NCBI GenBank assembly: GCA_964596525.1
Contig: CAZQUL010000001.1
Coordinates: 1,147,773-1,211,772 of the forward strand
DNA: 64,000 bases
Origin: an uncultured Gammaproteobacteria bacterium
GTDB lineage: Bacteria > Patescibacteriota > Patescibacteriia > Magasanikbacterales > GWA2-37-8
Direction: 5' to 3'
Made by a program: the position numbers and the translations under genes. Shown here piece by piece: positions 32,531 through 64,000 of this stretch (within the stretch, counting starts at the first letter, position 1; the number at the start of each line of letters is the position of its first letter). A model generated the notes under the pieces. It had not been told where the DNA came from. It did not search any database and saw only the letters and a list, made by a program, of their open reading frames with translations.

Positions 32531-33847
32531 CTAAGATGCGGGAACATCGGTTACGAGTTCGATGTCGGCACCGACGCTCTTAAGGGCTTCATGGAGGCGT
32601 TCATAGCCGCGATCGATCTGGTAGGTGTTGCGCAAAATTGACGTACCGCGCGCGGCGAGCATACAGATAAGCACGTCAACGGCCGGTCGCAAGGCGGGCG
32701 GAGATTCCAGATCGCCGGGCTTAAACACGGTCGGCCCTTCGACACCAGAGCGATGGATGTCGATAGCGTCGATTCTAGCACCGAGCTTGTTGAGTTCGGT
32801 AAGGTAGATGGAGCGATTTTCGTAGACCCAGTCGTGTACGAGGGTGCGGCCTTTGGCCTGGGTGAGGATGGGCACAAAAAGCGGGAGGTTGTCGATGTTA
32901 AGGCCAGGAAATGGACGGCATTCAAGCTTATCGGGCAATGCTTTGAGTTTGCTCGGGACGATGGTGATATCGACAAGGGGAAACTTGCCGTTTTTGGAGA
33001 TGCGGTGGTTAGAGAGCTCATAATTCTGCCCCATAGTTTTGAGCTTAAGGAGCTCGAGCTCCAAAAAGTCGAGTGGGCAATTGGCGATGGTGAGACGCGA
33101 TTTGGTGGTAATCGCGACCGCGATGTAGGTCATGGCCACGATCGGGTCCGGAACCAGCGGATAGTTTTTTACGGATTTGAGCTCTTTTACGCCTTCGATG
33201 GTGAGTGTAGTAGTGCCGATGCCTTTGATTTTGGCGCCAGCTTTGACCAAAAAGTAGCACAGATCTTGCACCATGTAGTTGGCCGAAGCCATTTTAATGA
33301 CCGTCGTGCCCGGTGCTAAGACCGCGGCCATAACCGCATTTTCGGTAGGCGTATCGCCGGACTCGTACATAACGACATAGGCCGAGCGCAGCGGTTCATT
33401 GACTACGTCGTAGTAGGTATCTTTAGACGTAACACGAACGCCAAAGGATTCAAGTGCGTATAAATGCGGGCGCACGGTACGCTTGCCAAGTTTGCAGCCT
33501 CCGGTGCGATACAAACGATATTTCTTGACACGACCGGCAAGCGCGCCCAGAAGCATAAGCGATGAACGGGTAGCTTCACAGGCACGGCGATCGATACTCT
33601 CAAGGCTAAGGGCACCGCTCGCATCAAGCTCTACAATGCCTGGTTTAGGGCGGCTCACGTTGACGCCGATGCTTTCCAAAAGTTCGATAATGCGGTTTAC
33701 TTCTTCAATATCCGGCACATCAGAGAGACGAGTCGAGCCTTTAATCATGGCCGCAGCACAAAGTATGGATACTGCCGAATTCTTGGCCGACTGATTAACG
33801 ATGGTACCGTGCAATTTTTTGCCTCCTTTGATGATAAAGTGGGACAT
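32531..33847 (-). CDS. murA: UDP-N-acetylglucosamine 1-carboxyvinyltransferase
   Basis: EPT-fold repeats; catalytic Cys region LGKRTVRPH-like; start at M13. Confidence 0.85.
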   Translation of the reverse strand: MSHFIIKGGKKLHGTIVNQSAKNSAVSILCAAAMIKGSTRLSDVPDIEEVNRIIELLESIGVNVSRPKPGIVELDASGALSLESIDRRACEATRSSLMLLGALAGRVKKYRLYRTGGCKLGKRTVRPHLYALESFGVRVTSKDTYYDVVNEPLRSAYVVMYESGDTPTENAVMAAVLAPGTTVIKMASANYMVQDLCYFLVKAGAKIKGIGTTTLTIEGVKELKSVKNYPLVPDPIVAMTYIAVAITTKSRLTIANCPLDFLELELLKLKTMGQNYELSNHRISKNGKFPLVDITIVPSKLKALPDKLECRPFPGLNIDNLPLFVPILTQAKGRTLVHDWVYENRSIYLTELNKLGARIDAIDIHRSGVEGPTVFKPGDLESPPALRPAVDVLICMLAARGTSILRNTYQIDRGYERLHEALKSVGADIELVTDVPAS

Positions 33848-33886
33848 AGGATATACTATCCCCATCCTAACACGGTTTTTCATCTT

Positions 33887-35254
33887 ATGGAATACCCCGG
33901 CAGCACCTTTACCAAGCCGTGGCGCATGGCGCTTCTGGCAGTTTTTATTGTTATTTTCGTTATATTAACACCAACGATTATACTCTACAGCGCTGGGTAC
34001 CGCTGGAGCTTTATCCAAAACAGATGGCAGCTGGTTGGAGGCTTGAGCATTGATACGGAGCCCAAAAACGTAGAGGTGTATCTTAACGGCAAAATGGTTG
34101 GGACCAAATCGCCACTTCGCCTCATGACGCTTGTCCCAGACACCTATGAGCTAACGCTGAGCGCGCCAGGATATTACGCGCTCTCGACGTTTGTTGGTGT
34201 TTCGAGTCAAGAGACCACGTATGTAAAAAATATTTCGCTTATCAAGAAAGACCCCTTTACACTCTACCTCCCTTTTCCAATCAAGAACTTGAGCGTAAGT
34301 CCTGACGAAAAGGTATTCATAGCCACCTATGCTACAGCGACCGGAACCGCAGTGGCAGTATTTTCTCCCGAAGAGGCAAACAGCACTCCAACTCCACGCG
34401 GCACACTTACACCGGGCGATTATACTATAAGCTGGCTCGATGGCGGTAATGAAGCTATATTCGCTTCCACTTCATCGCCTGTCATGCATATATTCAACCG
34501 TGCGCGAAATACCGTTAAAAAATACGAAATTCCCTTTGGCAGCGAACGCATCCAAGCCGACCCGGCAGCGCCGTTCGTATATTTTTTCTTTAATGACCAT
34601 GCCACCCGTTTTTCGCTGCGCTCCGAGAGCTACGATTCGGTGCAGCTTGATACTACGACGACGTGGTATGTAGCAAATGACGTATGGTACGGATTGCGCA
34701 CCGATCTCGCTTTCGGCGGGCTCGAAGTTGTGCGCGGAACGGTACGCAACGGAATTTTGGATGAGGAACCACTACGCGGCGATGGTTTTGACCGCTTGCG
34801 CAGCTGGATGAAAGGAAGTGATTGGCAGATCGTCAGCGTGCGCGAAGGTACTTTAGAGCTGTTCTCTGCCGCACGCAATGAACGCGCCATCGTTACGCGA
34901 GACGAGCTTGTGAGTGCAGAGGGGGGCAAGAGCCACTACTCCCCCACGCTCAATCGCTGGTATTTCATTGACACGTACGCGCTGCGAGATTTTACTCCCC
35001 AACAAGATATAACCCCCCGCCTTCTCTACCGTGGCGCTACAGCGTTCTCCCATGCTTTGCCGATCTTTGCTTCTGACATCTTCGCACTTCAACGAGACAA
35101 CATGGTGGTCGTCCGCTTTACGGAGCGCAATGTCGAACAAATTCTAGCCACCGACATGCACTGCACGAGGCTTTTGGCACATCTACCCGAACGCAAATTG
35201 TGGTGTGCTGGTACGCACCGTGGCACCGACGGATTGTGGGTTAAAAATTATTAA
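33887..35254 (+). CDS. Membrane-anchored PEGA-domain protein
   Basis: N-terminal TM; VEVYLNGKMVGTKSPLRL...PDTYELTLSAPGY PEGA motif. Confidence 0.5.
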   Translation: MEYPGSTFTKPWRMALLAVFIVIFVILTPTIILYSAGYRWSFIQNRWQLVGGLSIDTEPKNVEVYLNGKMVGTKSPLRLMTLVPDTYELTLSAPGYYALSTFVGVSSQETTYVKNISLIKKDPFTLYLPFPIKNLSVSPDEKVFIATYATATGTAVAVFSPEEANSTPTPRGTLTPGDYTISWLDGGNEAIFASTSSPVMHIFNRARNTVKKYEIPFGSERIQADPAAPFVYFFFNDHATRFSLRSESYDSVQLDTTTTWYVANDVWYGLRTDLAFGGLEVVRGTVRNGILDEEPLRGDGFDRLRSWMKGSDWQIVSVREGTLELFSAARNERAIVTRDELVSAEGGKSHYSPTLNRWYFIDTYALRDFTPQQDITPRLLYRGATAFSHALPIFASDIFALQRDNMVVVRFTERNVEQILATDMHCTRLLAHLPERKLWCAGTHRGTDGLWVKNY

Positions 35255-35260
35255 ACGTAT

Positions 35261-35674
35261 ATGCACCTGACTGTGTTTACTGACGGCGGGTCGCGCGGCA
35301 ACCCTGGACCGTCCGCGACCGGTATCGTGGTCAAAGACGCTAGCGGAAAAACCATCGCAGCTTACGGCGAGTATCTTGGCATCCAAACCAACAACGTAGC
35401 CGAATATCAAGCACTGCTTTCGGCTCTAACCAAAGCGCAAGAACTCGGCGGAACTCACGTCGACTGCGTGCTCGATAGCGAACTTGTGGTAAAACAAATG
35501 AATGGCCAGTACCGCGTGCGCAATCCAGAACTGCTAAAACTCTTTCTACGCATCTATAACCTGCGGCAGGGATTCAAAAAAGTGACCTTCCGGCATACAC
35601 TGCGCGAGGGCAACAAAGAGGCTGACGCAGAGGTAAACAAAGTGCTTGACGCGCATATGAAAACCACCGGTTAA
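35261..35674 (+). CDS. rnhA: Ribonuclease HI
   Basis: TDGGSRGNPGP...TNNVAEYQAL RNase H motifs. Confidence 0.8.
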   Translation: MHLTVFTDGGSRGNPGPSATGIVVKDASGKTIAAYGEYLGIQTNNVAEYQALLSALTKAQELGGTHVDCVLDSELVVKQMNGQYRVRNPELLKLFLRIYNLRQGFKKVTFRHTLREGNKEADAEVNKVLDAHMKTTG

Positions 35675-35708
35675 CCGGTGGTTTTCTGAACGTTTTTAAC
35701 TTAGCCGT

Positions 35709-36824
35709 TTAGTTGCTGGTGGAGGTAACGAGCGGGGGGACGATCATTGTGGGCGTGGTGAAGACCATTGTCGGCTGAGACTGGATAAACGGCCGGTTTT
35801 GAGCGAGTTCGGCAATAATGGTTTCGAATTTCTTGTAATCTGCGGGCATTACGACCGGACGGCCGGAGCCAAAATGCTCAAAAGTCATACGCATATTAAC
35901 CGTAAGATTATCGGTTTTATTCTTATTGACAGCAGATGACACGGAGAACGAAAGAAGTTCAGGCAACATGGTCCGCTTGTTCACAATAAGATCGGCCGAG
36001 AACGCAGGGAGCTTGGTAAAGAGCTTGTTGAGCTCGCGGATATCGGAGGCACTGGGTTTCTCACCGATGATTTTGGAGATATCGAGTATGAAGAGGCGAG
36101 CACCGACCGGATTCAGCTTGAGGCGCAAGCGGTAGGCCGGAGCACCGCTCGCATCTTTGGCATCGGCGACGCGCGTAGCAGTAACGACATTACGACTCCA
36201 GAAAGCCTTTTCAATCTTAGCGTTCATTTCTTTCATTTTGGCTTCGTCGGCGCTAAGTGGATTGCTGTACGAAGGGTTTTCCGCAGAGGTACCCTGCACG
36301 CCCAGAAGCGGCATTAAAGCCGGATTAAGGAAAGCATTCGGCACCGTCTGCTGGTCGATACGGATCCAGGTATTGAGATATTTACTCAAATCAAAACCGA
36401 GAGATGCAGTTGAGGTAGGCAGACTAAACCCGCTGACGCGGAAATTAAGTGTACCAGCTTCATCACCGACCATTTCAAGGAGTGGAGATTGTCCGGTGGC
36501 GGGATTATAGAAGGTTACGGCGGTGCTGTACGTCTTGGCCACCTGGTCGGCCGAACCGGTAAAGTAAGTGCGGAATTCTTGACCCTGGGCCAAAAAAGCG
36601 AGCGATGGGTCGATGGCCTCCTGACGGAGTTCTTCCGGCAAGACGATACCGACCCGGCCAGCGAAATCGTATGAGGGTAGCTTCTCTAGATTAGCGAACG
36701 ATTGTTTGAAGATAGTTTGTGCCAACGGCGTTGCGGCAGCTGCTGGGAGGGGAATGAAAGCGCCGAAGAGAGCGAGTATTGCCAACCCGGCAATGCCGCG
36801 CTTGAACGAGAAGGACATAAGCAA
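35709..36824 (-). CDS. Secreted protein, hypothetical (signal peptide)
   Basis: N-terminal signal sequence; no recognisable family. Confidence 0.5.
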   Translation of the reverse strand: MLMSFSFKRGIAGLAILALFGAFIPLPAAAATPLAQTIFKQSFANLEKLPSYDFAGRVGIVLPEELRQEAIDPSLAFLAQGQEFRTYFTGSADQVAKTYSTAVTFYNPATGQSPLLEMVGDEAGTLNFRVSGFSLPTSTASLGFDLSKYLNTWIRIDQQTVPNAFLNPALMPLLGVQGTSAENPSYSNPLSADEAKMKEMNAKIEKAFWSRNVVTATRVADAKDASGAPAYRLRLKLNPVGARLFILDISKIIGEKPSASDIRELNKLFTKLPAFSADLIVNKRTMLPELLSFSVSSAVNKNKTDNLTVNMRMTFEHFGSGRPVVMPADYKKFETIIAELAQNRPFIQSQPTMVFTTPTMIVPPLVTSTSN

Positions 36825-36941
36825 AGATGGTTAGTATAGATTAATTCCTTATATAAGTATCGTAGAGATATGAAATAAGGAAGTCAAGAGACAATTAGAA
36901 TTTCGGATTAACTCTCGGTATTGCACGATTATCAGGGAACT

Positions 36942-38045
36942 TTACAACACATCACGCAGTTCTTCGAGCTTACGCTTAAGTTCTTTGGATACTTTGCGCG
37001 GTACGTTGATTTTGAGCTCAACATAGAGATCACCGCGCGTCGAGGGACGATTGAGAACCGGAATACCGTGATGTTTGAGCCGGATACGTTGACCATGCTC
37101 AGAACCTTCAGGAATTTCTATCTTAAGCATTCCTTCGAGCGACTCGATCTCGACGGTATCGCCCAAAACAGCTTGCGTAAAGCTGATAGTTTTTTCTACA
37201 TACACATCGAACCCTTCACGGCGAAAACCTTTGAGCGGTTTAAGATGGACCGCGACGTACAGGTCACCTTTCACGCCGCCATGAGGAGCAGCTTCGCCCA
37301 AACCCGTAAGACGGATGGACTGCCCCGCGTCGATACCGGCGGGAATCTTGACCGTGTGCTTGACGGTTTTCGCAAGAATACCGTCACCACCACAGTGTTT
37401 GCATTTTTTAGCCGCATGCTCTCCCCTACCTTGACAGGTCGGGCACGGGGCAACCGTCTGCATGGTACCCAAAAAGGTGCGCTGATTCTGCACCACCTGG
37501 CCGCGTCCGTGGCAGGTACCGCATGTTTCCATTTTACTCCCGGGTTCGGCGCCACTGCCGGTACAAACTTCACACGTGTCTTGTTTGCGCAGCTGGATTT
37601 CTTTTTCCACGCCAAAAGCCGCTTCTTTAAAATCAAGTTCAATATCGACTTGAATGTCATTACCGCGCGCCCGGCCGCCTCCCCGCCCACCGCCGCCGAA
37701 ACCAAAGAGGTCGCCGAACATATCGCCGAAATCCATGCCGCCGAAATTGAAGTTGAAGTTGCCCTGCCCTCCACCGCCGCGCGTCGCGCGCATGAAATCT
37801 TCCCAATTCATACCGCCGCCAAAGCCGCCCTGCTGCTCAAAATCGGAACCGAACTGGTCGTAACGTTTACGTTTTTCCGCATCGTTAAGAACTTGGTATG
37901 CTTCATTGATTTCCTTAAACTTCTTTTCATCGCCCGTCGGGCGGTCGGGGTGATACTGCAACGCAAGCTTTTTGAAAGCTTTCTTTATATCGTCGGGAGA
38001 GGCGTTTTTTTCGACGCCGAGAATTTTGTAATAATCTTTGGACAT
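36942..38045 (-). CDS. dnaJ: Chaperone DnaJ
   Basis: J-domain HPD, Gly/Phe-rich region, four CxxCxGxG zinc-finger repeats. Confidence 0.9.
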   Translation of the reverse strand: MSKDYYKILGVEKNASPDDIKKAFKKLALQYHPDRPTGDEKKFKEINEAYQVLNDAEKRKRYDQFGSDFEQQGGFGGGMNWEDFMRATRGGGGQGNFNFNFGGMDFGDMFGDLFGFGGGGRGGGRARGNDIQVDIELDFKEAAFGVEKEIQLRKQDTCEVCTGSGAEPGSKMETCGTCHGRGQVVQNQRTFLGTMQTVAPCPTCQGRGEHAAKKCKHCGGDGILAKTVKHTVKIPAGIDAGQSIRLTGLGEAAPHGGVKGDLYVAVHLKPLKGFRREGFDVYVEKTISFTQAVLGDTVEIESLEGMLKIEIPEGSEHGQRIRLKHHGIPVLNRPSTRGDLYVELKINVPRKVSKELKRKLEELRDVL

Positions 38046-38224
38046 AAGGGAAATGAGGCTAGCGGATGATTATAGTACGGGATACTAGGCAGGAAATAAG
38101 AATTGCGATTTTTAAATAGATTTTTTCATACAAAGCATCCACAGGTATTATTGAATACATCGATAAAACCAGTAAACTGCATGCGCGGCCATTTATGGCT
38201 TGAACTAAAAACTGAGGTGGAACA

Positions 38225-38470
38225 ATGCGCACGTCCCTGTTTGCACTCCTGGTTTCCAGCGCCCTGTTTACTGGGGTGACGATTGGTTATACGCTCGAGA
38301 AGGGCAAACCAATCGTGAGGATCAAGCAGTCCTCCGCCAAGGCCAAGGCTGATGATGGTGAATCGACCAAGTGCAAAACCTGCACGACTAATGCTGACTG
38401 CACAGGCGGCGCGCCGTGCGGCAGCACATGCATCCAATCGATCGTACCAGACTATAAGTACTGCGGCTAA
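38225..38470 (+). CDS. Small cysteine-rich protein with N-terminal hydrophobic segment (signal peptide or anchor), family member A (6 Cys)
   Basis: SD GAGGTGG; hydrophobic N-terminal segment ...FTGVTIGY; C-terminus KCKTCTTNADCTGGAPCGSTC; terminator downstream. Confidence 0.6.
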   Translation: MRTSLFALLVSSALFTGVTIGYTLEKGKPIVRIKQSSAKAKADDGESTKCKTCTTNADCTGGAPCGSTCIQSIVPDYKYCG

Positions 38471-38498
38471 CAATCACTCCAAGCCACCCGCCCAATCA

Positions 38499-38535
38499 TC
38501 AGGCGCGTTTGAAACGCGCGTGATGATTTTTTTAT
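38499..38535 (+). terminator. Intrinsic terminator (caggcgcgtt-tgaa-acgcgcgtg plus T7)
   Basis: Read directly. Confidence 0.65.
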
Positions 38536-38740
38536 TTAAACAGAACCGGCTTGAATCGATCGAAATGCTGCTAAAAAAGGGAGCTGTGCGTGTAACTTCT
38601 TTCTTAAATCCGCTGTAATGTACCTGATTTGACTTGACAAATCAATCGGTTAGGAGTAAGGTGAGCTGTCCTAGCAGGATTTTCCGTACCCCCTATTTGT
38701 AACAACAGGAGGTGAGACATGGACCACTGAGGAGGTGCCC

Positions 38741-39082
38741 ATGTTCCAGGTTACGTATTGGACGCACGATGATCCCACCCGCTCACGCTGCATTGATCTT
38801 TTTCCTGCCGACCCTCGCTTCCCGATGGTGTGCATCTGGACCCAGGTTGAGTTCGCAGCCGAAGCGTGGGATGTGACCGTCGACCCGGAGGGTTTCACGA
38901 TCGTTCCTCAGCCGCCGGAGATCGTCGAGCCTTGTGAAATGGCGAGTGAGATCATCGACGTCGTGGTGGCGGATTCCCCTATCGCGACGGCACTCATCGA
39001 CGCGATTCTGGCCTTTATCGTGGCCACGACGCCGCACCAGGATGCGCTCTACGCTGGCCTCAGCCATCCGCAGCACGCTTAG
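38741..39082 (+). CDS. Acidic cytoplasmic protein, hypothetical (114 aa)
   Basis: SD GAGGAGG 6 nt before the ATG; no TM; promoter-like TTGACA-17-TAAGGT about 100 nt upstream. Confidence 0.45.
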   Translation: MFQVTYWTHDDPTRSRCIDLFPADPRFPMVCIWTQVEFAAEAWDVTVDPEGFTIVPQPPEIVEPCEMASEIIDVVVADSPIATALIDAILAFIVATTPHQDALYAGLSHPQHA

Positions 39083-39178
39083 CTCCAAGCCCCCCCGCGG
39101 GGCTTTTATGTTTGTTGACTAAGCAGGATTTTCTTGATACGTTCTCTTGCGGATTCATAGACCAACGGAGGACACCAG

Positions 39179-39475
39179 ATGAAAAAACGTCGCGGTTATC
39201 AGCGCTTATGGGTAATGCTTGGCGCGATGATGATCTCTTCTTTACTCGATAACGCAGCCCGTAATTATTCTCGAGAAACAACGCTTACCGCCAGAGTGCC
39301 ACAAGCATGCGCAGTTACCGGTTGCGGTACGGTCTGTACGAGCGACAACGAATGCCTAAACGACCGATGTCCCGACTGCGTAAAAAAAGGAGACCGCCAT
39401 GTGTGCTCAAAGATCGTAGACGAACGGACAGCCGGAAGCATCCGATTCACTACCCCCTCACGCTCACAGCATTAA
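39179..39475 (+). CDS. Small cysteine-rich protein with N-terminal hydrophobic segment (signal peptide or anchor), family member B (7 Cys)
   Basis: SD ACGGAGG; promoter TTGACT...TGaTACGTT; ACAVTGCGTVCTSDNECLNDRCPDC. Confidence 0.6.
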   Translation: MKKRRGYQRLWVMLGAMMISSLLDNAARNYSRETTLTARVPQACAVTGCGTVCTSDNECLNDRCPDCVKKGDRHVCSKIVDERTAGSIRFTTPSRSQH

Positions 39476-39503
39476 GCGCCACACTCGGGTGTTGAGCGCT
39501 TTT

Positions 39504-40124
39504 TCATTTAAAAACTACGGCAACCGATACGCTCGGAACGAGCAAACCCACCAAACGGCGTATTTCCTCTTCAGTCTCTCTCTGGATTTCCTGCCGCAGT
39601 TCGGGAGTTTGAGCAGCCTTTTCCGCCTCTGTTTTAAGGGCAGTAAGCGCTTGATTATATCCATCGTCGCTATCAAAGATCTTTTTGAGTACGCCTTGGG
39701 TATTTTTAACTGTCACCGCCCCGATAATTTCGGTACTATAGTGAGTCGGAAGCGGCAGGGCGATGGTTAATTGGCCGCCGCTCTCTTGAATATCGGCTGC
39801 GGCAAGTTTAGATAAATCGACACCCGAACTTATCTTTACGTGCGCGCTCGCGGAAATGTATTGTTTCCAGAGCACGTCTTTAAAGAAACTACCCGCAGTG
39901 TTGTTGATATCCACGGTTTGATTGAAGAGGTATGTTTGTGTAATAAGAAAGCCTTGTCCACGCAATGCTAAAAGGATGGTTTGGGACGTAGGTCGGGATG
40001 TTTCCGTTTCTGTCTTTCGATAGAGGCTGCGAGCGGTAAAAAAACCGCCGATGAACACAGCCGCGACGCACGCGGCAACGATGAGATATTTTTTAGGCAT
40101 ACGATGTTCTACAGACTTATCCAA
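39504..40124 (-). CDS. Membrane-anchored protein, possibly DUF4230-like, hypothetical
   Basis: Single N-terminal TM; about 200 aa. Confidence 0.45.
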   Translation of the reverse strand: MDKSVEHRMPKKYLIVAACVAAVFIGGFFTARSLYRKTETETSRPTSQTILLALRGQGFLITQTYLFNQTVDINNTAGSFFKDVLWKQYISASAHVKISSGVDLSKLAAADIQESGGQLTIALPLPTHYSTEIIGAVTVKNTQGVLKKIFDSDDGYNQALTALKTEAEKAAQTPELRQEIQRETEEEIRRLVGLLVPSVSVAVVFK

Positions 40125-40132
40125 AATATACT

Positions 40133-40160
40133 TGACTATTTTATCATGTTTAATATACTG
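40133..40160 (+). promoter_or_regulatory. Strong sigma70-like promoter TTGACT-16-TATACT for Cys-rich gene C
   Basis: Read directly. Confidence 0.5.
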
Positions 40161-40195
40161 TGTTTTGCCTTGATAACCCCAGAGGAGAACACATC

Positions 40196-40399
40196 GTGAA
40201 CAAGGTTAGAGCCTTAATCGTAGCTAGCACCACCGCGTTGACCATTCTTACCGGAATTGCGGCCGATCGTTTATGGAACGGCCGTTGGTTCTGGAAAAAT
40301 TCGGCGTGTGCCGGAATCGGCGAATGCATTCGCAATTCCTGCACGCAGCAGATGCAGTGTTCCGGCAATTGTAAGTGCATAAATAATATCTGCCAGTAG
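40196..40399 (+). CDS. Small cysteine-rich protein with N-terminal hydrophobic segment (signal peptide or anchor), family member C (7 Cys)
   Basis: GTG start with GAGGAG SD; ACAGIGECIRNSCTQQMQCSGNCKC. Confidence 0.55.
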   Translation: MNKVRALIVASTTALTILTGIAADRLWNGRWFWKNSACAGIGECIRNSCTQQMQCSGNCKCINNICQ

Positions 40400-40532
40400 G
40401 CCACGCCGCAAACGCCCCAAGGAGGGCTTTTTTGTAATCAGATTTTCACCTCTATTGACAAATAACTTACACCCCGGTTATCGTTAGAGATGTTCTTCTA
40501 AACAAACCACCCACACGAAGAAAGGAAGAGCC

Positions 40533-40823
40533 ATGCGCATGGGAAGCCTCCATCTGCCGAATTTTAAAAAAGCTTCTATTCTCTTGGGCATTACTTGTAT
40601 TTTTTCCGGACTCACCTGCAGCTTCCCATCCTCGCCAGGAAATAGACTGCCGACCATCGCCGTCAATCAGGCGTGCAGCGAAGGAAATTCTAATTGCCAG
40701 GTGTGTACTGAGGACAGGGAGTGTTCTGGAGCAGCGTGCGGGCCAAAATGCGATTGGTGGGTTTACATCGGACAAGTACCGGTCGAAAAGTATGGAAAAC
40801 GCTGCCGCGATCAGGTGCGCTAA
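40533..40823 (+). CDS. Small cysteine-rich protein with N-terminal hydrophobic segment (signal peptide or anchor), family member D
   Basis: SD AAGGAAG; hydrophobic N-terminus; ACSEGNSNCQVCTEDRECSGAACGPKC. Confidence 0.55.
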   Translation: MRMGSLHLPNFKKASILLGITCIFSGLTCSFPSSPGNRLPTIAVNQACSEGNSNCQVCTEDRECSGAACGPKCDWWVYIGQVPVEKYGKRCRDQVR

Positions 40824-40862
40824 AGAGGCTTTTCTATCTTGGCCCTGCAACCTTAGGAGGAC

Positions 40863-41123
40863 ATGATGCGACTAAGATCTCTCTCGAAACGTACGAGGAT
40901 AGGTATTTTCGCAGCTCTCGCGCTCACCACTACCTTTTTCGGCGGCGTGACGATCAAGCGCAATTTTCTTGAGCCGTCGCCGCGGGCAGCCTGCGCTTCT
41001 GGCGGATGTACCGCGGATTGTACAGCGAGCGGCAGCTGTAGCGGCGACTGCACCTGTAACGGCTCTGTCGGCGACAAGAAGCGCAGTTGCGTATCTCCTC
41101 CGGGCGGCCACGTCGGCCGCTAG
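40863..41123 (+). CDS. Small cysteine-rich protein with N-terminal hydrophobic segment (signal peptide or anchor), family member E (7 Cys)
   Basis: SD TAGGAGG; leader ...FGGVTIK; ACASGGCTADCTASGSCSGDCTC; terminator downstream. Confidence 0.6.
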   Translation: MMRLRSLSKRTRIGIFAALALTTTFFGGVTIKRNFLEPSPRAACASGGCTADCTASGSCSGDCTCNGSVGDKKRSCVSPPGGHVGR

Positions 41124-41296
41124 GATGAGCTGAACTGGGCAGAATATAGACTGTTTCTCCCACGCGCCTTAACGGCGCTTTTTTATTAATCTGCGTACTT
41201 ACTTCAATTTATTTTATCTTGACAATTCGCTGAACCGACCACATAATTCACATGGCCTTGAAAGAACAACATGATTACGAAAAAGGATGAGAACCC

Positions 41297-41710
41297 ATGC
41301 ACAATCCGCTCAAGAACCTGACTCGGACCAAACTCGCGATCGGTTTTTCGGTCGTCATTTCTGGTCTATTATCCGGAGTAACGATTGGCCGCCAGCACGG
41401 GCCCTTCAAGCAGAACAAGGCTTGCGCCGGGGATCGCGAGTGCGAGCCAACCTGTTCTAAAAATGAAGACTGCCACAGCATGTGCAAGTGCTGCATCCAA
41501 AAAGGTCGATCGACTGGAAAGTGCATTCAGAAGTGCACGAAGTGCGACACGAACGGCCCTATCGCCTCCTGGCTGGACCAGATGCTGTCGATCCCCACGG
41601 CAGCGGCAGACTGCCGGCCGGTTAATGCTTGTGAAGACGACTCCGACTGCCTAATGCCCGGTTCGCGGTGTGTCTCCACGCCGTGCGGAAACCGCTGCCA
41701 GGGAAAATGA
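41297..41710 (+). CDS. Cysteine-rich protein with N-terminal hydrophobic segment (signal peptide or anchor), family member F (two Cys-rich modules, 19 Cys)
   Basis: Promoter TTGACA-17-CATAAT; leader ...LSGVTIGR; ACAGDRECEPTCSKNEDCHSMCKCC plus a second Cys-rich module; terminator downstream. Confidence 0.6.
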   Translation: MHNPLKNLTRTKLAIGFSVVISGLLSGVTIGRQHGPFKQNKACAGDRECEPTCSKNEDCHSMCKCCIQKGRSTGKCIQKCTKCDTNGPIASWLDQMLSIPTAAADCRPVNACEDDSDCLMPGSRCVSTPCGNRCQGK

Positions 41711-41771
41711 ACAGTATCCTCCCCTAGTCAGCGCTACACTTGAAAGTAGCGCTTCTGGATCATAACCGCCT

Positions 41772-41797
41772 TTAGGCGGTTTTTTCATCCAAACATC
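41772..41797 (+). terminator. Intrinsic terminator (aaccgcc-tttag-gcggtt plus T6)
   Basis: Read directly. Confidence 0.6.
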
Positions 41798-41839
41798 TAA
41801 CCCCGTGCCACGCACAGGGTTAGTCTGTTTAGCGGCGAG

Positions 41840-43753
41840 CTATTTTACCACTTCGCCTTCAATCGGACCTTCATCTTTCTTGTCATTCGATGCTCCAGCA
41901 TCAGATCCTGGTGCGGCTCCCCCGCCCTGCTTAGCCTGCTGTTCCTGCGCGTACATCTTGGTTCCGACCGCCTGCGCTGCATTCGAGAGCTCGTCAACAG
42001 CTTTCTTCATCGCTTCTACATCATCCTTGTCTTTCACTTCCTTGAGTTTTGCGAGTCCTTCCTGGACTTTCTTTTTCTCATCGTCAGTAATGGAAGAAAT
42101 CTTTTTCTCTTCCACGTCCTTCATCATCTTTTCGGTCGTGTAGATCATCGTGTCGGCGATGTTGCGCGCTTCGATGAGTTCTTGTTTTTTCTTGTCTTCG
42201 CCAGCATGCGCTTCAGCATCTTTTTTCATGCGTTCGATTTCGTCTTTCGACAAACCGGTCGAAGCTTCGATGCGCACCGACTGTTCTTTGCCGGTCGCTT
42301 TGTCTTTGGCCTTCACGTTCAAGATGCCGTTAGCATCGATGTCGAAGGTTACTTCGACCTGCGGTACGCCGCGCGGAGCCGGCGGGATATCGCCGAGGAT
42401 GAACCGTCCGAGCGTCTTGTTATCTCCTGCCATCGGGCGCTCGCCCTGGAGTACGTGGATTTCCACACTCGGCTGATTGTCCGAGGCAGTCGAGAAGACC
42501 TGCGATTTGCTCGCCGGGATCGTGGTATTGCGTTCGATGAGTTTGGTCATCACGCCACCCATGGTTTCGATACCAAGAGAAAGCGGGGTGACATCAAGAA
42601 GAAGCACGTCTTTTACATCACCGCGGAGTACGCCTCCCTGTACCGCCGCGCCGACCGCGACGACTTCGTCGGGGTTCACGCTGATATTGGGTTTTTTGTT
42701 GAAGAATTTTTCGACCGAGGAGTAGACGAGCGGCATGCGCGTCATACCGCCGACCATCACGACTTCGTCAATCTGGCTCGTCGAGAGCTTGGCGTCTTCA
42801 AGCGCGCGCTTGACCGGTTCCATGGTTTTTTTAACCAGATCACCGACCAATTCTTCGAGCTTGGCACGGGTAAGTTTCATCACCAAGTGCTTCGGACCAG
42901 TCGCATCCGACGTGATGAACGGTTGGTTGATTTCGGATTCCTGCGCAGTCGAAAGTTCGATCTTCGCTTTTTCGGCAGCTTCTTTGATGCGCTGCAGAGC
43001 GAGCGGATCTTTGGAGAGATCGATGGTTTCGGTTTTCTTGAATTCATCGAGGATCCAGCGGATAATAACCTGATCGAAGTCATCGCCGCCAAGATGCGTA
43101 TCGCCGTTCGTCGAAAGCACCTGTACCGAGTCGGCGCTTACTTCGAGCACTGATACGTCGAACGTGCCGCCGCCGAGGTCGTAAACCATGATTTTCTGGT
43201 CTTTCTTTTTATCGAAACCGTAAGCGAGCGCGGCTGCGGTCGGTTCGTTGATGATGCGGAGCACTTTCAGACCCGCGATCTCGCCCGCATCTTTGGTGGC
43301 CTGGCGCTGCGCATCGTCGAAGTACGCCGGAACGGTGATAACCGCTTCGGTGATTTTTTCACCCACGCGCTCTTCGGCATCAGCTTTGAGTTTCTGAAGC
43401 ACCATCGCCGAGATTTCCTGCGGCGTGTATTCTTTGCCGCCCATCACGACTTTCACGCCTTCGCCGGACTTGATGATCTTGTACGGCATCAGGTTCAGGT
43501 CGCGCTGCACTTCGGCATCATCCCACTTGCGGCCGATAAGGCGCTTGATGGAATAGAGCGTGTTTTCCGGGTTGGTGACGGCCTGGCGCTTGGCCAGCTG
43601 ACCCACGAGGCGCTCGGCGCTTTTCGAGGTCGCGATCATGGACGGCGTCGTGCGCGCGCCTTCCTTGTTTTCTAATACTTTCGGCTGGCCGCCTTCGATG
43701 ATGGCCATGCACGAATTGGTTGTACCGAGGTCGATTCCGAGGACTTTGGACAT
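41840..43753 (-). CDS. dnaK: Chaperone DnaK (Hsp70)
   Basis: [16 protein letters not shown] and other Hsp70 signatures; start at M15. Confidence 0.9.
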
Positions 43754-43757
43754 AGAA

Positions 43758-44177
43758 TTATCTATTAGAGTTATAAATATGAGGCTTAAATACATTCACA
43801 GATTTTTTATTCTCCGGAAAAACTAGCAATTCATTACTACATTCTTGATTAGGGCATTTAAAATTATCTTCGTTTGAATTAACTGGGACAAGTCTCATGG
43901 CAATTTGTTTTTTATCCCAGCAGGATGTGCAAAATGGCCCTCTTTCATGCATGGGTATTTTTTTATCCTTGAGCCAATAAGTATAGTTAATAACCTCTAT
44001 ACTTTCTTTAAACTTCAGTTTCTCCATTAAATCCTGATTTTTTTCTTTTAGAGCTGCATTTTCTGCAAGTAATTTACTTACATCTTTTTGCAACTCAAGG
44101 ACATTATTATGCAATTCAATGTTTCGAGCTTGCCCAGCCAGGTCAGCTAAAGTTTTAAGATTATCTAGAATAGCCAT
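43758..44177 (-). CDS. Coiled-coil protein with a C-terminal CxxC...CxxxC zinc ribbon, hypothetical (AT-rich)
   Basis: CTSCWDKK...CPNQEC; markedly AT-rich codon usage compared with the flanks. Confidence 0.45.
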
Positions 44178-44180
44178 AAA

Positions 44181-44672
44181 TTAACTTAAAATTTTAACTA
44201 AAATTTTCCTCTTCATTTCATAACCAGAATTTTCATAAAACTTTATAACCTTTTCATTAGCACTTTCAACTTCAAGAAAAATTCTAGTACAATCCTTCTC
44301 TTTTAAATATTTCTCAATTTCTTCAATTAACCTTGAACCAATGCCTAATTTCCTCACTTCTTCTCTCACAAATAACTCAAGAATAAAACCATTCTTATTC
44401 TCCCCCTCCGCAATCCGCTCAGTTTCTTCCTGATCTTCAATGATACCTGCCGTAAAACCGACAATCTTACCATCATCAAGCGCCACGAACATCCGACCAT
44501 CCTTTTCTTCGAGAGATTTAAGCAGCGCAGGCACAAAAGCTTTTCCGAATTCCGGCGAGCGACTCGAACGAACAGGCTGTTCGAGTCCGGCGTAATAATC
44601 TTCAAACTCATTCATGAGACGGATTATCGAATCTGTGTCGCCGGTTTTAAATTCTCGAATCGAGATATCCAT
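44181..44672 (-). CDS. GNAT-family N-acetyltransferase
   Basis: Acetyl-CoA motif A-like RKLGIGSRLIEEIEKY; start at M18. Confidence 0.6.
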   Translation of the reverse strand: MDISIREFKTGDTDSIIRLMNEFEDYYAGLEQPVRSSRSPEFGKAFVPALLKSLEEKDGRMFVALDDGKIVGFTAGIIEDQEETERIAEGENKNGFILELFVREEVRKLGIGSRLIEEIEKYLKEKDCTRIFLEVESANEKVIKFYENSGYEMKRKILVKILS

Positions 44673-44685
44673 AACAGACGAATGA

Positions 44686-45255
44686 TTATTTAATCGGATC
44701 CGCCTCCAAATAAATATCCGCAAACCTCTTCTTCATCAATTTAACGTGCGTTTCGCGGATACTATCCGAAAAATCTTCCGGCTTAACACCCCATTTCTGT
44801 AATTCCGATTCAATATCTTCCGCGGTTTTTTTGACAATCAATACCGACGGAAATTTCTCTACTGAACGAATTTCTTCTCGCAAGAACTGCTGCCACGTGC
44901 CGTCGATGACCCATTCCTCCTTGTCGATTTCGGCGTTTATATAGTCGTGCTCGGTAACCACCCATCCACCGGGATATTCGTAGATCTGAGCGTTCGGCGC
45001 GATTTCTTTAACCAGCGGGAGAAGCTCTTCGCACACGACTATGCACGTACCTTTCTTAAAAACATCGGCCGCGTTCATTTTGCGCAGAGCGGCAACTTTT
45101 TCGTAGGCCTGATTCGTCATGTCAATGAGACGCTTTTTGATTTCGTTTTTTTCTTTGTTTTCTTTAAAACCGGAATCTCTCTGGCCAATGTTAGGGCGAA
45201 GCGTATCCATAGGATTACTTTTTGATTTCACTACCAACCTTTTTAATCTCTCCAT
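44686..45255 (-). CDS. Hypothetical protein (start uncertain; M16 at 45210 would avoid overlap with the upstream gene)
   Basis: ORF only. Confidence 0.35.
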   Translation of the reverse strand: MERLKRLVVKSKSNPMDTLRPNIGQRDSGFKENKEKNEIKKRLIDMTNQAYEKVAALRKMNAADVFKKGTCIVVCEELLPLVKEIAPNAQIYEYPGGWVVTEHDYINAEIDKEEWVIDGTWQQFLREEIRSVEKFPSVLIVKKTAEDIESELQKWGVKPEDFSDSIRETHVKLMKKRFADIYLEADPIK

Positions 45256-45760
45256 ACATCCAATACCCCCACAGTGCCGTAACGATCAGTTCAAAATACC
45301 GCCCGAACACGCGCGCGAACACGACGAATCCGTCGAACACCGCACCCGACACAGACCGAGGAAGGAAGAGCGTGACGATTTCAAACGCAAGCTGGAAAAG
45401 TAAAACGTAGAACAAGGCGTAAAAATACATATTCACCATGCGCCACATCGTAACGCTCGAATTTTTTATGGCCGGCACAAATTGTTTAAGACCATAACCG
45501 ACGACGCAGGTGGCCAGCAGACGCACTGCCGTAACACGCACCACAATAGCGATGACCGCAAAAACAGCAAACGCCAAAAAGCCCGCTGGCATCTGTTCTT
45601 TCACCTGGGTAAAAGCAGCAAAACCACCAAAAGCTAACGTGGCCGTAATAATAGCAAGCACTAACAGGACGGCATCAATAACCACGAGCTGCCACGCCAA
45701 TTTCGTCGATGACAACTCCGGCAAAAACTTCTGTGGTGAAAAAATATTTTTCCAATTCAT
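45215..45760 (-). CDS. Multi-TM membrane protein, hypothetical
   Basis: 4-5 hydrophobic helices. Confidence 0.45.
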   Translation of the reverse strand: MNWKNIFSPQKFLPELSSTKLAWQLVVIDAVLLVLAIITATLAFGGFAAFTQVKEQMPAGFLAFAVFAVIAIVVRVTAVRLLATCVVGYGLKQFVPAIKNSSVTMWRMVNMYFYALFYVLLFQLAFEIVTLFLPRSVSGAVFDGFVVFARVFGRYFELIVTALWGYWMYGEIKKVGSEIKK

Positions 45761-45841
45761 AGATGGGTTACAGAGAATTAGGCTTTCAGACCCCGACTGG
45801 TTGCGTGCAACGAGTCGGGCATCTGAAGGACCAATCGCGGT

Positions 45842-46276
45842 TTATTTCTTATTCACTTTCACTTCGATCTTTTTCGCCACTGTCGCCTCGGCTTTTGGGC
45901 AGCTGATTTTGAGCATTCCGTTCTCGAATTCAGCACTGACTTTGTCTTCCATTACCTGGGTCGGGAGGAGTACTTCACGATAGAACGAACCACTCCGTAC
46001 TTCTTTGCGGTAATAATTCTTCTCATCCACTTCGTGTTCGCGCTTGCTTTCACCTTTGATGGTGAGCACGCCTTTTTGCACGGTAATTTCTACATCTTCG
46101 GGCTTTACTCCGGCGAGCGGAGTTTCTACCATTACGGCTTTGTCCGTTTCATACACGTCAAGCGCTGGCACGAACGATTTGAGGGATTTTCCCGGCACCA
46201 CCATCGGGAAACGATCATTGAACATGTCTTCCATGTCTTTGAAGGCATCCATGGGAGACCAACGAATGAGTGACAT
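45842..46276 (-). CDS. Small heat-shock protein (Hsp20/alpha-crystallin)
   Basis: MSLIRW...alpha-crystallin domain; start at the ATG with AGGAG 6 nt upstream (track GTG start 46291). Confidence 0.8.
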   Translation of the reverse strand: MSLIRWSPMDAFKDMEDMFNDRFPMVVPGKSLKSFVPALDVYETDKAVMVETPLAGVKPEDVEITVQKGVLTIKGESKREHEVDEKNYYRKEVRSGSFYREVLLPTQVMEDKVSAEFENGMLKISCPKAEATVAKKIEVKVNKK

Positions 46277-46340
46277 ATACTTCTCCTGCACCTACAGTGT
46301 CGTAAGGCAAAGCAGGTGCTTAAGAATAAATAGTTTCTTC

Positions 46341-46401
46341 GTCATTGCGAGGAGCACAGCGATAAAGCAATCCCCAGTCGTTCCTCCTTCCTCGCAATGA
46401 C
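46341..46401. repeat. Palindromic intergenic repeat element, copy 2 (12-bp perfect stem gtcattgcgagg/cctcgcaatgac) in the hsp20 upstream region
   Basis: Shares arms and core with the copy at 8254-8360. Confidence 0.6.
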
Positions 46402-46408
46402 ATAACTA

Positions 46409-46957
46409 TTACTTTGCAACCATTACTTTCGCCACTTTAACGACTTTTCCGGCCAGTACATACCCGCCGTCCAGCTCGCGGATAATCTCGCCCGCTTTCT
46501 TTCCTTCCATATCTTCCTCGCCTACCGCTTCATGGCGCGAGGGATCGAATTGTTCACCGACGGTTTTTATTTCTTCGATGCCGTTATTTTTGAGCACGTC
46601 GCCGAATTGCTTCATGATGAATCCAATACCGGCCGCCCAATTTTCTTGCTCTTTGCTCCAACCATCCTGCTTTTTACTTGCGAACGCTTTCTTGAAATTG
46701 TCGTAGACCGGAATGAAGTCTTCGAGAATCTGAAGCTTGCTCATCTGTGCCCATTCGCTACGACGCGCAGCGGTTTCTTTTTGGAGGTTTTGATAATCAG
46801 CAAGAGCGCGCTGCCAGCCTTGCTTGTATTCTTCGCACTGTTTGGCGAGCGTATCGTCAAGCGGAGCGGCTTGAGGTTCATTCGGCTGCGATTGCGCCTG
46901 AGAAACATCGTTGGCATTCTGGATCTGTTCCTCATTATCAGGTGTTGTATCGAACAT
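46409..46957 (-). CDS. grpE: Nucleotide exchange factor GrpE
   Basis: Coiled-coil N-terminus and GrpE C-terminal beta domain. Confidence 0.8.
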   Translation of the reverse strand: MFDTTPDNEEQIQNANDVSQAQSQPNEPQAAPLDDTLAKQCEEYKQGWQRALADYQNLQKETAARRSEWAQMSKLQILEDFIPVYDNFKKAFASKKQDGWSKEQENWAAGIGFIMKQFGDVLKNNGIEEIKTVGEQFDPSRHEAVGEEDMEGKKAGEIIRELDGGYVLAGKVVKVAKVMVAK

Positions 46958-46969
46958 AGCGGTAAAAAA

Positions 46970-47659
46970 TTAGTTCCGTAAAAGTTCTGCGGCTTTGGCG
47001 ATGAGCGGCACATGATAGGTGTAATCCATGCGCTCCGGGCCGAGCATGATAAGGAGCTCGTCTTCTGCCCCCCAGCGCACCGCAACAAGGCCAAGACGCT
47101 CACCGAACGGATGTTCGCTGCCTACAAAGCACGTGGGAACGCTCGGCGCTTGTGGAGCGAAGAGCTGCACACAACGCTCGAATTGATCGAAAAGGCGCGA
47201 AAAGTTGGTGATTTCTTCAACATCTTTAAATTCCGGCTGGGCGAAAAGGCTGGAGAGTCCGGTATAATAGAATGAGCTGAGCGAAAAGGTGACAAGTACG
47301 AGTTCGGAGGTAAGTTCAACGAGCGTTTTAGCTACTTCTTTTTTCTGACGCTCCAGGTCTTTTCCGTCACGATGCGCGGATTCGAGCGCAGACTCATCAC
47401 GACGAGACAACTTTCCTTTGGTCCAATCGATGTTATTTAGATATTGTCGAAAGCCTTTGCTCGTGGGGATGCGTCCAGCCGAAGTGTGCGGATGGGTAAG
47501 AAAGCCATCTTCTTCGAGCGCGCGCAGGTCATTTCGCACCGTTGCCTCACTCCAATCAAGCCCGCCTTCGGCTACCAGAAATTTGGATCCTACCGGTTCG
47601 GCGGTCTTGATATAGTGATTGACGACAAGTTCGAAGAGGTGGTACTGGCGTTCGTTCAT
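46970..47659 (-). CDS. hrcA: Heat-inducible transcriptional repressor HrcA
   Basis: wHTH N-terminus (PVGSKFL) plus the HrcA C-terminal domain; start at M17. Confidence 0.75.
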   Translation of the reverse strand: MNERQYHLFELVVNHYIKTAEPVGSKFLVAEGGLDWSEATVRNDLRALEEDGFLTHPHTSAGRIPTSKGFRQYLNNIDWTKGKLSRRDESALESAHRDGKDLERQKKEVAKTLVELTSELVLVTFSLSSFYYTGLSSLFAQPEFKDVEEITNFSRLFDQFERCVQLFAPQAPSVPTCFVGSEHPFGERLGLVAVRWGAEDELLIMLGPERMDYTYHVPLIAKAAELLRN

Positions 47660-47663
47660 ATGA

Positions 47664-47690
47664 TTATCACTCTTACTGTCTGAGTGATAA
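47664..47690. promoter_or_regulatory. CIRCE-like operator TTATCACTC-N9-GAGTGATAA immediately upstream of hrcA
   Basis: Perfect 9-bp inverted repeat with a 9-nt spacer; CIRCE consensus is TTAGCACTC-N9-GAGTGCTAA. Confidence 0.7.
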
Positions 47691-47790
47691 TATAGCACTC
47701 CCCTCACTCGGTCTCAAGCAAAGTTATACACAACTCGAATCCCTCTGTAGATATGCTATAGTATGCCCTGTTACCTTAAGGAGAACCGAG

Positions 47791-54611: not shown

Positions 54612-54800
54612 ATGACAGGAAAGTCCGTGCCCGAAGAGGGCGTCGTCACGCTGTGCGGTACGCAGGGATGCTGCCCCACGGTCGATTTCACCGAGCCCGG
54701 CAAGGTCATCATCAAGGATGACCATGGCGGCCGCGTCGAGCTGAACGCGGGCGAGTGGAACGATCTGAAGGGCAAGTTCTCCGCGACCGGCAAGCGCTGA
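54612..54800 (+). CDS. Small Cys-containing peptide (62 aa); candidate radical-SAM substrate or RiPP precursor
   Basis: SD AAGGAG 6 nt upstream; core TLCGTQGCCPTVDF; sits immediately 5' of the rSAM/SPASM gene. Confidence 0.5.
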   Translation: MTGKSVPEEGVVTLCGTQGCCPTVDFTEPGKVIIKDDHGGRVELNAGEWNDLKGKFSATGKR

Positions 54801-54889
54801 TCCAACCGCGCCTTCGGGCGCATCACCGGCTCCTAGCCACTACGCGTGGTTAGGAGCCATTTCATTTACGTGGAATTCGGAGGGCTCAC

Positions 54890-62255: not shown

Positions 62256-62283
62256 AGCACCGCGAAGGCGGTGTTTTTGTTTA
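62256..62283. terminator. Bidirectional terminator (gcaccgc-gaag-gcggtgt) downstream of the OLD-like gene
   Basis: Hairpin with flanking A/T runs. Confidence 0.55.
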
Positions 62284-62347
62284 ATAACTATTTATCTGGC
62301 GGACAAGTGCGGAGTATTTATGCGGGGGGATGAAGCGTTCATCGAAC

Positions 62348-63997: not shown

Positions 63998-64000
63998 TTC

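Follow-up and report, generated by a model that had tools for sequence, protein, structure and literature searches.

Actifensins are encoded in tandem multi-copy arrays, with up to seven genes per operon, and the operon also holds adjacent ABC transporters, a protease and a regulator (PMC6989792). In the candidate phyla radiation (CPR), Peregrinibacteria and Peribacteria carry clusters of large Cys-rich extracellular proteins for which a role in attachment has been proposed (PMC4736985), and bacterial knottins are present in the KNOTTIN database only as predictions, none of them with a solved structure (PMC5753296). Members of the CPR (Patescibacteria) are thought to live attached to other cells, and the molecules that mediate this are largely unknown. 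In this paper we analyse a stretch of 64,000 nucleotides, hereafter the window, from a Patescibacteria genome near Candidatus Magasanikbacteria (DnaK identity to metagenome-assembled genomes, MAGs, of that group does not exceed 85%), and describe an array of six genes, A to F, for small Cys-rich proteins between dnaJ and dnaK. Our proposal, whose chances we regard as evenly balanced, is that the six products of the array are Sec-targeted mini-proteins with an extracellular role, members of a tandemly expanded family restricted to one lineage and built on six-Cys modules that come closest to the inhibitor cystine knot (ICK) scaffold.

The gap between the two chaperone genes is 3794 bp long in this genome (Table 1). 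All six open reading frames (ORFs) were found on the + strand at the starts given in an initial annotation made from the sequence; to that description we add that dnaK and dnaJ are both on the - strand, and hence that the array is antisense to them. Besides the six Cys-rich ORFs (67-137 aa), the gap holds an acidic 113-aa ORF on the + strand and a DUF4230 gene on the - strand. The same eight gap genes were called by an independent gene caller on two Logan assemblies, one of which is 100% identical to positions 33672-42572 of the window, while the other differs at 16 positions, one of them within the array (gene E, V76A in L002). All array ORFs are intact in both of these further assemblies.

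To define the family, leave-one-out profiles were scored against all ORFs of the window and of 80 related loci. Whichever five members were used to build the profile, the sixth was the best ORF outside the training set, with E from 2e-4 to 2e-9, and the next best ORF had E of at least 0.09. Pairwise identity between the paralogs is 25-40%, and by profile comparison the six genes are a genuine but highly divergent paralog family. No similarity is left between the paralogs at the DNA level, and a DNA repeat search gave no recent duplication, so the duplications that made the array are old or its genes are fast-evolving. The synonymous codons used for the conserved Cys residues (TGC and TGT mixed) and for a G-V-T-I motif differ among the paralogs, which indicates selection at the protein level.

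The members have a common architecture: a positive n-region leads into 13-19 hydrophobic residues, and a variable, charged linker (10-25 residues) connects these to the Cys module. In all six proteins the n-region has a charge of +1 to +5 and is followed near the N-terminus by an h-region with 13-residue Kyte-Doolittle maxima of 1.9-2.4, as is expected of a Sec signal peptide or anchor. The initial annotation had described tandem paralogs, small and Cys-rich, with hydrophobic N-termini, and the leave-one-out profiles and the Sec-type n- and h-regions bear it out. The G-V-T-I-(G/K) motif that it had reported as frequent closes the hydrophobic stretch in A, E and F only and is missing from B, C and D. 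Candidate cleavage sites picked by eye are T-I-G (A and F) and I-A-A (C). The parts predicted to be exported (45-106 residues) are mildly cationic and carry net charges between +1 and +3.

The Cys residues in the predicted exported parts of A to F number 6, 7, 7, 7, 7 and 16, respectively, and D has two more in its hydrophobic segment; these counts correct the 6-8 per module given initially. Protein F does have the two modules ascribed to it, as the profile matches it at residues 39-83 and again at 100-136 (E 5e-10 and 2e-9). Only three Cys columns are strictly invariant in alignments of the seven modules, and the remaining Cys align with small gaps. The common six-Cys core can be written C-x2-5-C-x5-C-x3-6-C-x1-4-C-x4-17-C, with C-x2-[DNQ]-x-[DEQ]-C inside it. 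Five of the seven modules (B, C, D, E and F1, the first module of F) have an additional Cys 4-6 residues upstream of the core in an A-C-A/S motif, a position at which gene A has A-K-A-K-A. Since A-C-A is an AXA motif, one may speculate that it is the cleavage point of a pro-segment, which would bring B, C, D and E down to exactly six Cys each; it is equally a matter of speculation that the seventh Cys forms intermolecular bridges. The motif sits 10-20 residues past the h-region, beyond the canonical distance of a signal peptidase I site (3-7 residues, with small residues at -3 and -1). Two other kinds of N-terminus were considered and rejected. A lipobox ([LVI][ASTVI][GAS]C immediately behind the h-region) is absent, since position -2 of the A-C-A Cys is Q, S, A or K, position -3 is N, P or R, and the Cys lies 10-20 residues past the hydrophobic segment; motif and spacing are also unsuited to a type IV pilin-like signal.

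Every + strand gene of the gap (7/7) has a GGAGG-like Shine-Dalgarno (SD) sequence 4-9 nt upstream. Six copies of the hexamer TTGAC(A/T) are present on the + strand of the gap and none on its - strand (1.6/kb vs 0.42/kb window-wide). They precede the acidic gene, B, C, D and F by 64-112 nt, with TAnnnT-like hexamers 16-18 nt further on. A promoter scan returned 9 sites where 3.7+/-1.9 were expected. The promoter match of gene A is weak (9/12) and gene E has none; as E also starts 40 nt past the end of D and no hairpin lies behind D, the two genes are probably bicistronic. The earlier picture of separately transcribed genes, each with its own SD and terminator and mostly with its own promoter, thus stands overall, with D-E as a probable single unit and A with a weak promoter as the departures from it. 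The only CIRCE (controlling inverted repeat of chaperone expression) element found lies upstream of hrcA, and there was no sign of heat-shock control on the array.

It is scarcely credible, in our judgement, that the ORFs are non-expressed chance frames or decaying pseudogenes in an expanded intergenic region. Such a view would account for the codon usage of the six genes, which scores -0.08 to +0.11 per codon against 0.2-0.39 in housekeeping genes, and for a codon test in which the antisense frame equals or betters the sense frame for C and E; no homologs were found anywhere (see below), and the single polymorphism in the array is too few to gauge purifying selection. It is opposed by the expression signals, as 7/7 + strand ORFs have a well-spaced SD, five have a TTGACW box at 64-112 nt and six have terminators, and by the significant protein-level paralogy with its conserved Cys columns in mixed TGC/TGT codons. 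The intact ORFs of the two further assemblies point the same way.

Searches for relatives of the family were negative. Among all eight gap proteins, DUF4230 alone matched a model in Pfam and NCBIfam. A word-indexed search of 5.8 billion protein clusters with the full-length and module alignments returned self matches only, as did a full HMMER search of 1.84 billion representatives. The leave-one-out scores of 20-37 bits imply that in searches of a billion sequences the reporting threshold would be out of reach for relatives that differ as much as the paralogs do from one another, and these negatives therefore exclude only orthologs of moderate similarity. No homolog of protein F was found in JGI metagenome contigs, nor was any homolog of the family found in IMG/VR viral contigs and GenBank phages by tblastn, or by profile in six-frame ORFs of about 160 related CPR loci round dnaK/dnaJ (2.1 Mb). 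A regular expression for ORFs with a transmembrane segment and a Cys module, run on 164 such loci, gave two matches that resemble chance ORFs. In keeping with the first reading, in which the family was not recognised, it is an apparently new and orphan family of a known general kind, the secreted disulfide-rich mini-proteins.

One look-alike in a Parcubacteria MAG is recorded here for completeness. An 85-aa ORF directly downstream of dnaJ (L029, 17005-17262, +; L122, 7672-7929, +) combines a hydrophobic segment at its N-terminus with 'AQCGRCVRVCQVTCLDKNPC...C' behind it. Its match to the family profile is not significant (E 0.26), and it could be a chance ORF or a very distant analogue.

The dnaK-dnaJ gap was compared in 103 related loci in which dnaK lies upstream of dnaJ on one strand, and its median length there is 546 bp. 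In the 39 closest loci (DnaJ at least 60% identical) it spans 6-1791 bp with a median of 368, so that the array, in a gap of more than twice the longest of these, is lineage-specific. In more distant CPR genomes this slot is sometimes filled by unrelated genes over 3-5 kb, and for this reason we regard the dnaK-dnaJ spacer as a recurrent site of gain for lineage-specific genes in CPR genomes. As to the accessory insertion proposed at the outset, the comparison of synteny upholds a lineage-specific filling of the gap and gives no ground for a mobile element: there is no integrase, no tRNA nearby, no flanking repeat beyond chance and no phage or viral match, and the GC content of the array (0.49-0.54) is that of the rest of the window.

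The DUF4230 assignment is secure (Pfam PF14014, 51.7 bits, with the gathering score at 27; E 1.3e-13). In L064, from a further Patescibacteria MAG, a homolog with 38% identity is likewise found between dnaK and dnaJ. Because of this shared slot and because it lies on the chaperone strand, DUF4230 is probably a resident of the chaperone operon round which the + strand orphans accumulated, and we reject the suggestion of the initial annotation that this membrane protein is an immunity or maturation partner of the array. The acidic protein has no hydrophobic segment and carries a net charge of about -10 in its C-terminal 66 residues; a homolog search with it was null and showed no informative feature, so it is an orphan too.

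A different gene occurs in the gap of many relatives. In eight Magasanikbacteria-like loci (L003, L006, L007, L009, L010, L011, L023 and L024) a same-strand gene of about 145 aa lies between dnaK and dnaJ. Its product is Cys-poor and looks helical, and the copies are mutually homologous in 7/8 loci (L003 matched none of the others). The gene is missing from the window, and it may be a co-chaperone-linked gene without obvious annotation.

The fold of the modules was approached by profile and by model. The best PDB matches of the module-only profile were EETI-II knottins, in which 'tCtededCsgdckCGsk' aligns with 'TCSQDSDCLAGCVCGPN' (E 0.04-1, non-significant), and the cyanobacterial lectin scytovirin was also matched. 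F2, the second module of F, when searched alone, matched the ICK scorpion toxin lambda-MeuTx (E 0.055), and reversed F2 matched nothing. An AlphaFold2 (AF2) model of module C, made from the seven-module alignment, had a mean predicted local distance difference test score (pLDDT) of 63, with about 75 over residues 20-38. Foldseek matches of this model were nearly all ICK peptides (MCTI-A, MCoTI-II, EETI-II, Dkk4-N, and spider and cone toxins), with E of at least 0.47, probabilities of up to 0.85 and target-normalised template modelling scores of up to 0.74. The single-sequence AF2 model of F had a pLDDT of 54, with about 80 in module F2, and its top structural match was lambda-MeuKTx-1. The loop consensus of ICK peptides is CX3-7CX3-6CX0-5CX1-4CX4-13C, and B, C and E fit it in all five loops if the extra N-terminal Cys is set aside. 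A knottin-like fold is consequently the best-supported structural reading, and we would put its chances at even or a little short of that.

Several findings weigh against the knottin-like reading and the extracellular role that we attach to it. Only 3/7 modules fit the ICK consensus throughout, the misfits being loop 1 of A and D (2 residues), loop 5 of D (17), loops 3 and 5 of F2 (6 and 3) and the extra Cys of F1. Similarity to known knottins does not reach statistical significance (E at least 0.04), and the AF2 confidence is modest (mean pLDDT 63 and 54). The seventh Cys in five modules makes the Cys count odd in B-E, and the reactive loop of squash inhibitors, six residues from Cys I to II, is absent. 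No Dsb/VKOR oxidase was found among about 45 window proteins scanned. SUF genes, ferredoxins and radical SAM proteins nearby suggest an anaerobic life, which makes disulfides outside the cytoplasm less certain, and the weak codon scores given above belong on this side as well. A squash-type protease inhibitor was in addition rejected in its own right, loop 1 being too short (2-5 residues).

The first annotation had left the choice between knottin, defensin and bacteriocin-like proteins open. Four weak, concordant results now favour knottin over the cysteine-stabilised alpha-beta (CS-alpha-beta) fold. We nonetheless weighed a Sec-dependent repertoire of defensin-like (CS-alpha-beta) bacteriocins with immunity from the acidic protein and/or DUF4230, which we hold to be improbable, although worth keeping in view. 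The weak PDB matches of the full-length profile (E 0.02-5) are almost all scorpion CS-alpha-beta toxins, among them OD1 (E 0.02) and BmK M4, and all six Cys align with the maurotoxin-type chimera (AgTx2-MTX/maurotoxin). CxxxC together with CxC, which in this fold lie in a helix and in a strand, is present in C, E and F1; the separation of these motifs in toxins and defensins is about 15 residues (~13-15), whereas here it is only 9, and they are missing in A, B, D and F2, on which ground CS-alpha-beta membership was rejected. The module-only profile and both AF2 models favour ICK instead, and no Pfam defensin or toxin family was matched. Actinomyces offers a parallel in gene organisation, as its degenerate six-Cys actifensins are encoded in tandem, up to seven in an array (PMC6989792), but the leaders here have no double-glycine or GA motif, the locus has no ABC transporter or protease, and the nearest ABC pair, FtsEX, is 8 kb off. 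The mildly cationic exported parts and the strongly acidic neighbour would suit this reading; against this, an antimicrobial peptide would be expected to carry more than +1 to +3 on 45-106 residues, which argues only weakly against such a role, and DUF4230 is better explained as an operon resident.

The odd Cys counts in B-E bear also on a second alternative, that the proteins are exported or anchored metal- or redox-active Cys clusters (metallothionein-like, Zn-, Cu- or Fe-binding, or thiol buffers), perhaps tied to the heat-shock locus. CxxC, CxC or CC pairs occur in every member, the surroundings are of an anaerobe type (SUF, ferredoxins, Fur, radical SAM), and the array lies inside the hrcA-grpE-hsp20-dnaK-dnaJ region. 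No disulfide oxidoreductase was seen in the scanned part of the window, a check that covered 64 kb of the 1.34-Mb genome. We think this alternative quite improbable, because there is no His/Asp ligand pattern, no CxxC knuckle pair at zinc-ribbon spacing and no match to a metal-binding family, while a conserved six-Cys core with hypervariable loops is typical of disulfide scaffolds. A tie to heat shock is opposed by the orientation of the genes, antisense to the chaperone operon and with promoters of their own, and by the position of the sole CIRCE upstream of hrcA.

A third alternative is that the genes encode precursors of ribosomally synthesised and post-translationally modified peptides (RiPPs) of the thioether or sactionine type, matured by a radical SAM/SPASM enzyme 13 kb away. 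The enzyme gene is peptide-maturase-like, and substrates of such maturases are Cys-rich; yet about 13 kb of housekeeping genes separate it from the array, it has a candidate partner ORF of its own just upstream, the hydrophobic Sec-type leaders are unlike RiPP leaders, and no leader peptidase or exporter is present at the locus. We consider this very improbable indeed.

The maturase-like gene is of interest independently of the array. Its best NCBIfam matches (54890-56224, +) are RiPP maturases (FibroRumin, PapB), with E down to 3.5e-35 and far below the cut-offs, and a 62-aa ORF with '...VTLCGTQGCCPTVDF...' that precedes it (54612-54800, +) could be its substrate or partner. Positions 54612-56224 (+) may thus hold an uncharacterised RiPP system in a CPR genome.

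Returning to our proposal of Sec-targeted mini-proteins with ICK-like modules, the data show the genes with their expression signals, the paralogy, N-termini of an export type, the lack of detectable homologs and a gap filled in this lineage only; export, disulfide bonding, the knottin fold and an extracellular binding or toxin role are what we infer. Each gene, or the D-E pair, would have a sigma-70-like promoter and a terminator to itself. The product would be exported via Sec, with the hydrophobic segment acting as a cleavable signal peptide or as an N-in/C-out anchor, and outside the membrane the module would be oxidised to a three-disulfide knot, which in ICK peptides has the connectivity I-IV, II-V, III-VI, with the third bridge threading the ring. 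Tethered at the cell surface or released, the module might then serve as a highly stable binding, inhibitory or toxin-like unit, and variable loops on a fixed Cys frame might give each module its own target, be it on the cells of a host or competitor or among their proteases.

A bolder form of the proposal, which strikes us as unlikely, is that these are genuine ICK proteins, invented or retained in an ultra-small episymbiont, and that they would be the first knottin family of bacteria to come with a defined genomic system, acting as a diversified set of effectors against the host. If that were so, they might be channel blockers, protease inhibitors or adhesion modules, surface-tethered or secreted, and the A-C-A Cys might mark a pro-peptide cleavage site or an intermolecular cross-link.

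Table 1. Genes and predicted expression signals of the dnaJ-dnaK gap, with positions counted from the first nucleotide of the window
Feature	Position	Strand	Remarks
dnaJ	36942..38045	-	367 aa; left edge of gap
Promoter-like site, gene A	38123..38151	+	weak, TTTTCA-17-TATTAT
Gene A	38225..38470	+	81 aa; n-region MRTS, hydrophobic LFALLVSSALFTGVTIG, Lys/Ala-rich linker AKAKA; module with 6 Cys, C-x2-C-x5-C-x5-C-x3-C-x10-C; leave-one-out E 6e-8
Intrinsic terminator, A	38494..38535	+	-22.4 kcal/mol, z -4.9, U7
Promoter-like site, acidic gene	38629..38662	+	TTGACTTGACA-17-TAAGGT
Acidic orphan gene	38741..39082	+	113 aa; own SD, double TTGAC box, terminator
Terminator, acidic gene	39087..39115	+	hairpin and U-tract
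Promoter-like site, gene B	39115..39143	+	TTGACT-17-TACGTT
Gene B	39179..39475	+	98 aa; MKKRRGYQR and hydrophobic segment, linker, A-C-A, 6-Cys module, 22-residue C-terminal tail; leave-one-out profile E 2e-4
Terminator, B	39474..39507	+	between convergent ends of B and DUF4230
DUF4230 gene	39504..40124	-	membrane-anchored, 198-206 aa; strand of dnaK/dnaJ
Promoter-like site, gene C	40132..40159	+	TTGACT-16-TATACT
Gene C	40196..40399	+	67 aa, GTG start; minimal member, module runs to stop codon; A-C-A-x4-C-x4-C-x5-C-x3-C-x-C-x4-C
Weak terminator, C	40408..40435	+	GCCC/GGGC stem and U6
Promoter-like site, D(-E)	40455..40484	+	TTGACA-18-TATCGT
Gene D	40533..40823	+	96 aa; A-C-S then C-x2-C-x5-C-x4-C-x3-C-x17-C; no terminator behind
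Gene E	40863/40866..41123	+	86/85 aa (85 from second ATG); G-V-T-I-K, A-C-A; module C-x3-C-x5-C-x3-C-x-C-x10-C; only array polymorphism (V76A in L002)
Terminator, E	41164..41186	+	hairpin and U-tract
Promoter-like site, gene F	41219..41247	+	TTGACA-17-CATAAT, 11/12
Gene F	41297..41710	+	137 aa; G-V-T-I-G, module F1 (10 Cys), 20-residue spacer, module F2 (6 Cys, CEDDSDC...GSRCVST)
Double hairpin terminator, F	41730..41788	+	convergent with dnaK end; -29 kcal/mol, z -5.6
dnaK	41840..43753	-	right edge of gap; ORF reaches 43795, likely start further in

The neighbourhood has further lineage-specific genes. The heat-shock operon (43758-47707, -) starts with a CIRCE-like element (47664-47690, 2 mismatches) and hrcA-grpE-hsp20, and before dnaK it is broken by genes for two proteins of 181 and 189 aa that match no family, for a GNAT acetyltransferase lying in a stretch of GC 0.39 (44181-44723) and for a 139-aa coiled-coil protein. 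With these genes inserted ahead of dnaK, it is the whole chaperone region that gathers foreign or lineage-specific genes, and not the dnaK-dnaJ gap alone. Directly downstream of dnaJ (35709-36824, -) is a gene for a 371-aa protein with a signal-peptide-like N-terminus and with no match in Pfam or NCBIfam or, by tblastn, in 160 related loci, and for these reasons we take it as another lineage-specific protein predicted to be exported. A 382-aa ORF at 36921-38069 (+) is the antisense shadow of dnaJ, which has a good codon score through frame symmetry and is a caution for naive ORF calling in this region.

Elsewhere in the window, a gene at 53109-53681 (-) encodes a member of the Translin family (Pfam E 1.6e-19), which is mainly eukaryotic and archaeal. 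The GC content falls to 0.33-0.36 at 62-64 kb, compared with about 0.51. An AAA_15/AAA_21 ATPase with a weak PtuA-like match (62348-63997, -) adjoins a DUF4407 protein (59894-61855, -), and positions 59894-64000 may be a horizontally acquired defence island.

A lineage-specific array, with strong promoters, of predicted exported, hyper-stable mini-proteins is a plausible candidate for the host- or competitor-directed molecules of the CPR. If the knottin fold is true, it would provide a tractable bacterial family for a scaffold known almost only from eukaryotes, and the modules, which at 28-50 residues are chemically synthesisable, would be new frameworks for peptide engineering. If the modules bind metals or stay unexpressed, the array would be a curiosity of one genome.

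Among the described systems, the Cys-rich clusters of Peregrinibacteria resemble the array in their CPR host, clustered genes, signal peptides, high Cys content and strain variability. Those proteins average about 1,650 aa and have weak similarity to Myxococcus Cys-rich repeats (PMC4736985), whereas the array proteins are 67-137 aa long, have one or two modules and do not match such repeats. Among eukaryotic symbionts and pathogens, the small secreted cysteine-rich proteins of fungi and the nodule-specific cysteine-rich peptides of legumes are likewise lineage-specific, fast-diverging tandem families with a signal peptide, a Cys frame and variable loops, and they serve interactions between organisms; they are eukaryotic and show no homology to the array, so that the analogy is one of evolutionary pattern only.

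In gene organisation, the closest precedent from bacteria is the actifensin system. Actifensins and laterosporulins are bacterial, ribosomal, highly degenerate peptides with six Cys and three disulfides, features that the array shares if its putative disulfides form. Actifensins differ in having a non-hydrophobic 32-residue leader with a GA/GG cleavage motif where the array has Sec-type leaders, and a CS-alpha-beta fold with 52% mean identity where the array has a knottin-like framework (predicted) and 25-40%. The accessory genes of their operon are absent from the gap, in which nothing but the acidic orphan and DUF4230 accompanies the six genes.

The knottins (the squash trypsin inhibitors EETI-II, MCoTI-II and MCTI-A, with the lambda-KTx scorpion toxins) differ from the array in that no sequence or structure score between them is significant, and in that the array has a loop 1 of only 2-5 residues, short of a canonical protease-binding loop, an extra N-terminal Cys in 5/7 modules, a possible N-terminal tether and a bacterial host. 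They share with it the six-Cys core, with loop lengths that agree in several modules (x4-x5-x3-x1-x4 in module C, x6-x5-x3-x1-x5 in EETI-II), the signature C-x2-D-x-D-C...C-x-C / G-x-x-C-[IV]-S-T, a predicted C-terminal beta-hairpin, and a precursor laid out as signal, linker and core.

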